Virus record (IMG/VR): IMGVR_UViG_2877285697_000005
Reading direction: 5' to 3' (one strand)
Origin: a virus
Taxonomy: Duplodnaviria > Heunggongvirae > Uroviricota > Caudoviricetes
Length of the DNA: 14,720 nucleotides
Both the position numbers and the translations under genes were made by a program. This document shows positions 6,939 to 6,989 of the stretch, in pieces; position 1 is the first letter of the stretch; each line of letters begins with the position of its first letter. The notes beneath the pieces are model-generated. The model saw only the letters and a list, made by a program, of their open reading frames with translations. It had not been told where the DNA came from and ran no database searches.

Positions 6939-6989
6939 TATTTGTTCGTGGTTGTTCCACGTTGTTCACTGACAGGATCGGCATATTTT
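6939..6989 (+). promoter_or_regulatory. Candidate promoter for the head/packaging operon with helically phased TTGTTC repeats
   Basis: TTGTTC at 6942, 6952 and 6962 (exact 10-bp spacing). Possible -35 TTGTTC (6962-6967) and -10 TATTTT (6984-6989) with 16-bp spacer. The promoter assignment is tentative. Confidence 0.3.

Follow-up and report, generated by a model that had tools for sequence, protein, structure and literature searches.

Helically phased TTGTTC arrays in a capsid-forming phage-inducible chromosomal island: putative operators of AlpA

Arrays of a TTGTTC box, repeated head to tail at intervals of 10 bp, occur in both att arms, between int and alpA, and ahead of the capsid operon of a capsid-forming phage-inducible chromosomal island (cf-PICI). 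Their phasing, the insertion or deletion of whole 10-bp units and the conservation of the cores mark them as a conserved cis-element under selection. By elimination and by analogy, the boxes are probably operators of the island's own AlpA, acting as excisionase and activator; the binding is putative, and we infer both which protein binds and whether each site serves activation or repression.

The island and its TTGTTC arrays

On the basis of ORF calling and Pfam searches, the window (the whole stretch of 14,720 nucleotides that was analysed) is identified as a cf-PICI residing in the host tqsA gene. It begins with int, which encodes a P4-type tyrosine integrase (1-1218, + strand; Pfam PF13356 and PF00589) containing the N-terminal arm-binding domain. 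This is followed by alpA (1573-1761, + strand), whose 62-aa product is an AlpA-family winged-helix protein (Pfam PF05930, E = 5.4e-17) that also matches the PDB entry 8c3t, 'AlpA family phage regulatory protein', with E = 2.2e-6. The genes for a D5-type primase/helicase (3559-5391), an SSB (5847-6257), a PerC-like protein (inside ORF 6148-6540) and an HK97-type capsid (7182-8339) come next, with ori iterons ACTGTTCACC at 5404-5553, and the protease, portal, connector, HNH, TerS and TerL genes extend up to 13523. No family was matched in an Rfam search of the window. An island from E. coli O26 RM10386 (L001) is 98.5% identical and splits tqsA as well; its annotation places the start of int 12 nt upstream of the window. 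The EcCIEDL933-like and EcCICFT073 islands are close relatives residing at another chromosomal site.

The insertion point lies within the coding sequence of tqsA (AI-2 transporter), after about codon 46; the right end retains a shortened 5' piece of the gene, and the left end a 3' pseudogene (window 14556-14720; L001 407-1312). Close relatives with an about 91% identical Int are inserted between roxA and phoQ instead.

The original prediction had placed the same TTGTTC block at two distant loci, and the coordinates of its repeats are confirmed at both: the 15-mer TTGTTCCACGTTGTT is present at 6952-6966 and 14455-14469, and TATTTGTTC at 6939-6947 and 14452-14460. The 10-bp period that it described also holds, with TTGTTC starting at 6942, 6952 and 6962 and the boxes lying on one face of the helix. 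These three boxes belong to site B (6931-6967, + strand), which is contained in a conserved block (6928-6967), 3' of an intrinsic terminator (6896-6924, + strand) located directly upstream, and 215 nt upstream of the capsid ATG (7182). Site C (14434-14470, + strand) is found in the right att arm, its centre about 131 bp away from the att core, and contains TTGTGT at 14445, TTGTTC at 14455 and TTGTTT at 14465. The two sites are in register, sharing 27 of 35 bases (6932-6966 versus 14435-14469), and each has a fourth, weaker box set 11 bp upstream of the others, TTGTAA at 6931 in site B and CTGTAT at 14434 in site C.

While these two loci stood, the inventory had missed three more. Site A (1265-1300, - strand) consists of four phased boxes, TTGTTC at 1300-1295 and 1290-1285, TTGTTG at 1280-1275 and TTGTAT at 1270-1265, and is located 47 bp past the stop codon of int (1218), in the spacer that leads to alpA. 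A proximal two-box site (1515-1530, - strand), with TTGTGT at 1530-1525 and TTGTTC at 1520-1515, is found just upstream of alpA and overlaps the -10 element of the sole sigma-70-like promoter predicted upstream of this gene (TTGCCA-17-AACAAT, 1493-1521). One more array, which precedes int in the left att arm, falls beyond the edge of the window and is seen in L001, the same island in E. coli O26.

The bare TTGTTC hexamer is not enriched in the window (16 copies versus 10.2 expected, a number reached in 11 of 200 shuffles). The 15-mer at up to three mismatches is enriched, with 5 matches versus 0.57 expected and none of 200 shuffles reaching 5. When three-box arrays with 10-bp spacing were searched for, requiring at least 15 of 18 matching bases, 5 matches at 3 loci were obtained versus 0.005 expected (200 shuffles), as the original prediction of a phased motif would have it; at other spacings, the three-box scan gave none at 6-9, 11, 12, 14 and 15 bp and one at 13 bp. 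The box consensus is nnTTGTTC[C/G]n, one per helical turn, with 2-7 boxes per array. In 51 boxes from 13 arrays, which were collected by a TTGTTC scan and may to that extent be biased by ascertainment, each position of TTGT has the consensus base in 50-51 boxes (1.9-2.0 bits). Conservation is moderate at the three positions that follow, and there is hardly any information in the spacers.

Some other elements were observed next to the arrays. A few bases from site A there is a 16-bp perfect palindrome, CAGTATGCGCATACTG, at 1241-1256. T-runs precede it, which rules out a terminator on both strands, and a dimeric regulator may use it as operator; it is conserved in islands L004 and L010, with one variable position, and absent from the EcCICFT073 lineage. 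The sequence ACTCTTTAA(A/G) is present twice in the int-alpA spacer (1376-1386 and 1546-1556), in blocks that are invariant across five aligned islands, and one of the copies is just upstream of the alpA ribosome-binding site. The motif is a candidate target of the alpA inducer. Near site B, two 27-nt terminator copies (6542-6568 and 6896-6922), 93% identical, flank a 100-aa ORF (6588-6890); this duplication suggests a duplicated or inserted gene cassette. Directly before the capsid ATG, a hairpin GTCCTGG...CCAGGAC followed by T7 (7146-7181) is present in the window and in island L002, and missing from the lineage with 63-75% capsid identity; it could serve to attenuate transcription or to hide the ribosome-binding site.

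An 18-nt perfect complementarity was also noticed between ATCAGGCTGGTGGGCTTT in terL (13146-13163) and AAAGCCCACCAGCCTGAT in the non-coding right end (14316-14333), where the hairpin AACCGGAAAAAAATTCCGGT comes next. The sequence is found once more, as ATCAGGCTGGTGGGC, at 2009-2023 inside ORF 1819-2958. All three copies are found in L001, L002, L004 and L072, two in L007, and the right-end one only in L003. This arrangement resembles the layout of the P4 CI RNA, with one regulatory RNA and its mRNA targets.

Conservation in related islands and occurrence in unrelated phages

The expectation that the arrays would be conserved in related islands is borne out by eight further E. coli and Shigella islands, in which four positions are kept: the left arm ahead of int, the stretch following int, the stretch that precedes the capsid gene, and the right arm. 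The right-arm array (site C) has identical position and architecture in seven islands (L001 to L007). The post-int array, of 4-6 boxes, is on the opposite strand and occurs only in islands with type 1 AlpA; type 2 islands (L002 and L006) are devoid of site A. An alignment of site A in five islands shows invariant GAACAA cores and varying spacers, and the array of the window is one exact 10-bp unit shorter than those of L004 and L010. In EcCICFT073, the post-int array has 6 boxes, and a phased TTGTGTC pair takes the place of the alpA-proximal two-box site of the window.

The pre-capsid array is found only in HK97-type cf-PICIs, 3' of a terminator and about 195-215 nt ahead of the capsid ATG, and classical PICIs lack it. 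Its block, TTTTGTAAATTATTTGTTCGTGGTTGTTCCA[C/G]GTTGTTC, is a sharp phylogenetic footprint, with one varying base between two cf-PICI lineages with a capsid identity of 63-75% to the window and flanking DNA that is about 50% identical or unalignable. The block is unchanged in L002 despite a different int, alpA and rep, and 417 out of 5426 complete genomes of E. coli contain it, always in unannotated intergenic DNA. An island at the fis site (L136) has an array in the left arm only, in a degenerate form (TTnTTCG). A contig scan using AlpA as query returned only 3 loci, including one from a Shigella island that is almost identical, and a protein search with AlpA gave few intermediate homologues.

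No arrays were found in 58.7 kb of non-island flanks, nor, even at the two-box threshold, in lambda, a known helper of EcCICFT073. A pattern scan of IMG/VR returned many phased TTGTTC arrays in unrelated phages without an AlpA-like gene, so that the motif alone is not diagnostic of AlpA. Among these, a family of uncultivated phages (L023, L051, L068, L097, L107, L118 and L121) has intergenic TTGTTCC/GGAACAA boxes in both orientations, G8 runs and the exact sequence TTGTTCCACATTGTTCCACATTGTTCC. In this family, neither an AlpA-like ORF nor a match among isolated phages was found; at the one locus examined, in L097, the element adjoins genes for dUTPase, thymidylate synthase and asparagine synthase.

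Candidate proteins that bind the arrays

The phasing, the whole-unit length differences and the conservation of the cores fit the pattern of a multimeric DNA-binding protein that had been proposed, with the binding putative. Of the three kinds of protein suggested, a regulator agrees with the positions of the arrays, which are found in each att arm, between int and alpA, and ahead of the capsid operon. This is the distribution expected of a dual excisionase and activator such as AlpA. Several features of directionality-factor sites are present: direct repeats one turn apart, located in the att arms by the probable integrase arm sites, and a winged-helix gene near int. Outside att, arrays lie in the region upstream of alpA, where a promoter is predicted, and past the terminator ahead of the capsid operon; in the region downstream of site B no consensus promoter for the capsid operon was found.

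Only int and alpA accompany the arrays. The replication protein (three types), PerC and the packaging module vary among the array-bearing islands, and L006 lacks PerC and still has its arm arrays. Over the core, type 1 AlpA is 68% identical to type 2, and both contain the helix motif R-x-x-R-Y-x-L-E-K as well as the wing GGRSVGW. The AlpA proteins of L013 and L014 have other residues at the helix motif and the wing, and scans of these two islands found no arrays. Among the sampled PICIs, arrays occur only in islands with AlpA type 1 or 2. Int and AlpA types are confounded in this comparison, each array-bearing island having an Int of the clade (55-100% identity) together with one of these AlpA types. 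L014 is a tRNA-Gly PICI whose AlpA is divergent; in place of arrays, the region ahead of its alpA (L014 3854-3990) contains repeats of the palindrome TACCCTGAGGGTA, which implies a different control logic in that lineage.

Published work agrees in part with AlpA as the binder. An alpA mutant of EcCIEDL933 shows no induction (10.1101/2022.09.08.507074), over-expression of AlpA leads to excision of EcCICFT073 (PMC6092414), and AlpA is reported to activate its own promoter. Several observations count against this reading. EcCICFT073 has an array upstream of int, although AlpA has no effect on Pint expression in this island (PMC6092414). Site A is inverted relative to alpA and about 270 bp upstream of it, and the proximal pair, covering the predicted -10 element, looks more like repression than the reported activation. 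Moreover, the type 2 islands are without site A, classical PICIs are without site B, and the array of L136 is degenerate. In L032, site B is retained next to two AlpA-like proteins that share no more than about 50-58% identity with type 1, and unrelated phages have phased arrays and no AlpA-like gene. A literature search for AlpA footprints or for the TTGTTC motif gave nothing specific, and no map of AlpA targets was found in the papers searched.

It is rather unlikely that another multimerising factor binds the arrays, either a helper-phage protein that induces alpA or a host response regulator of the OmpR/PhoB type. Among such regulators, TorR recognises decamers CTGTTCATAT. Site B persisting in L032 beside divergent AlpA proteins would suit such a factor, as would the arrays of unrelated phages without AlpA, which imply that other proteins can read phased boxes. 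A phage-encoded inducer turns on alpA (PMC6092414), and an array does lie in the region upstream of alpA. Against this, the presence of arrays in both arms at a fixed distance from the integrase pair is the place of a directionality factor, lambda is a proven helper and has no array of its own, the arrays of the sampled PICIs are found only alongside AlpA type 1 or 2, and there is no evident link to a host regulon. In its most specific form, which we regard as unlikely, the arrays would be docking sites of a helper-phage or host PICI inducer that licenses excision, alpA and the capsid operon, or boxes that such an inducer shares with AlpA; if this were true, one external signal would directly license all three.

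The integrase has to be considered because two arrays fall within the att arms, and an Int of the clade co-occurs with arrays in all the islands sampled. P4 Int is known to repress its own promoter via its N-terminal domain, and the boxes could be extra arm-type sites or sites of transcriptional regulation by Int. The arms, however, already hold a distinct element. The att core is ATAACAGCA at 14584-14592, at the junction with host tqsA, as deduced from the host homology starting at 14584 and the identical 9-mer at the left junction of L001. Between site C and this core, starting 17 bp past the array, lies a 12-bp tandem pair, GGTGTAGTCACT GGTGTAGTCATT (14488-14511, + strand), its centre about 88 bp from the core; its exact 10-mer GGTGTAGTCA occurs nowhere else in the window. 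A second co-oriented pair with the same consensus, GGTGTAGTCAyT, is found upstream of int in L001 (1442-1465), so that the pairs stand at about -88 and +144 of the core. In each arm, the TTGTTC array is followed by the 12-bp pair 8-17 bp on, and the right-arm order of array (14434-14470), pair and core is that of the left arm of L001.

Judging from this layout, which is exactly that of the P4 arm repeats, the two copies of GGTGTAGTCAyT are a probable integrase arm-type site, distinct from the arrays, and the TTGTTC arrays consequently need another protein. The pair is not the AlpA site, since L002 (TGTGTGGTCAGT twice) and L006 (a GGTGTAGTyAAT version) have different pairs and nearly identical AlpA proteins. 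The pair of L136 is identical to that of the window though Int is only 55% identical, and the pair of L002 differs (Int 67%). Recognition of two consensus sequences that are unrelated by one and the same arm-binding domain is unlikely. P4-type arm sites have one consensus and are confined to attP, whereas the arrays at 1265-1300 and 6931-6967 lie 1.3 kb and 7 kb from att. Head-to-tail runs of 3-7 boxes at 10 bp are, moreover, typical of directionality factors and not of Int arm sites (PMC7498355). For these reasons, the integrase arm sites of the original prediction do not account for the arrays, and their recognition by Int is very unlikely.

A highly improbable reading is that site B is a packaging signal, made of cos or pac repeats bound by the small terminase. 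Small terminases often bind direct repeats, and site B heads the packaging module, with which it is conserved. Classical PICIs lacking this terminase, however, carry the same boxes in their att arms and upstream of alpA, which excludes the terminase as the binder. The cos site of HK97-type phages is usually found in the gap between HNH and terS, and the 290-bp gap of the island (11232-11522) is the more usual place for it.

Secondary replication-protein sites, comparable to the P4 crr, had also been suggested, on the similarity of the boxes to the iteron core TGTTCAC. The arrays and the iterons of the window do share the core TGTTC, and P4 has its iterons at two distant loci, ori and crr. However, the iteron sequence follows the type of replication protein (ACTGTTCACC, TGCGGGTTA and AAAAGTGGGG with three unrelated Rep) and the TTGTTC arrays remain unchanged: islands with DUF927 or RepA-helicase proteins have iterons TGCGGGTTA and AAAAGTGGGG and the same arrays as the window. 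Conversely, L013 encodes a primase of the same type as the window and carries GGTGAA iterons, and scanning it revealed no TTGTTC arrays. Since iterons co-vary with the Rep type and arrays do not, replication-protein sites are ruled out, with next to no likelihood left to them, and the likeness to the iteron core is a coincidence.

An antitermination role like that of Pseudomonas AlpA, brought to mind by the terminator before site B and by the hairpin and T-run before the capsid ATG, was dropped, because that protein is a large Q-like antiterminator that is absent from the solved-structure matches of the island AlpA, and the hairpin is not conserved. Comparison by eye of the boxes with the DnaA box and the IHF consensus gave a poor fit.

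Returning to AlpA as the probable binder, its action may be pictured as follows. The island would be induced by a helper phage, and AlpA would be made; its monomers would then bind cooperatively, head to tail, on successive boxes and bend the DNA. From the arm arrays, 8-17 bp from the integrase arm pair, AlpA could help to assemble the excisive intasome, in the role of an excisionase. In the int-alpA spacer, the distal array of 4-7 boxes and the proximal pair at the predicted promoter may mediate AlpA autoregulation. In cf-PICIs, the array past the terminator might allow AlpA to switch on a capsid and packaging operon that is promoter-poor and insulated by the terminator (6901-6918).

In Gram-negative phage-inducible islands AlpA acts as the master switch, and the arrays offer a testable operator code, TTGTTC every 10 bp. 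The putative four-site regulon suggests that one small protein may couple excision, self-amplification and, in cf-PICIs, late gene expression. Probable AlpA sites can now be separated in attP from probable integrase arm sites. The motif could be of use for annotating PICI boundaries and late promoters, for AlpA-responsive reporters and for engineered satellites.

Comparison with known systems

Phased operators of a protein that is both excisionase and regulator are a familiar type of element, apparently not yet described for the AlpA of PICIs. Sites of directionality factors are direct repeats one helical turn apart (PMC7498355), and the closest parallels are found in phages 186 and P2. Apl of phage 186, a small monomer that binds cooperatively, bends DNA and serves as excisionase as well as transcriptional regulator, recognises repeats 10-11 bp apart, five at attP and seven between promoters (PMC7498355). 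The geometry of the Apl and P2 Cox sites, and their division between att and promoters, are the same as for the arrays. The differences are that Apl and Cox are not of the AlpA family and have another box sequence, that Apl represses and AlpA is reported to activate, and that the island arrays occupy both att arms and two promoter regions. The X1-X1.5-X2 sites of lambda Xis are bound head to tail by winged-helix monomers on one DNA face, beside an Int arm site, in a bent microfilament (PMC7498355); unlike the arrays, they are in one arm only and have no such transcriptional role, and the protein family and the sequence are others.

The AlpA of Pseudomonas shares only its name with that of the island. 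It has eight helices and contacts DNA through residues 128-142 (PMC9371919). The Pseudomonas protein is Q-like with an N-terminal ring, and its element is a single GGGACG between -35 and -10, as compared to a protein of 62 residues and multi-box arrays in the island.

Helper-embedded PICIs have a doubled attP motif, tgTGTATTGCantgTGTATTGCa, whose co-oriented copies are placed near -81 and +132 relative to the attP centre (Tommasini et al., PMC10111431). This motif corresponds to the two GGTGTAGTCAyT copies of the island (about -88 and +144) and not to the TTGTTC arrays. The same paper (PMC10111431) reports that the doubled motif is absent from other PICIs and does not describe phased TTGTTC arrays.

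P4 is the satellite with which most features can be compared. Its type I iterons, TGTTCACC, at ori and crr share the core TGTTC with the arrays, and the ACTGTTCACC iterons of the window are of the same kind; the iterons are in mixed orientation, whereas the arrays are strictly head to tail at 10 bp. No TTGTTC arrays were found in P4 at the thresholds used. Its Vis is a small AlpA-family homologue, 45% identical over 53 residues, encoded by a satellite with a P4-type integrase, and its recognition helix differs from that of the island AlpA. Vis is reportedly needed for excision and is said to regulate the late-left and int promoters as well, and the attP of P4, according to the annotation of its record, has tandem pairs of 12-bp arm repeats, all in one orientation, to either side of the core, like the pairs of the island.
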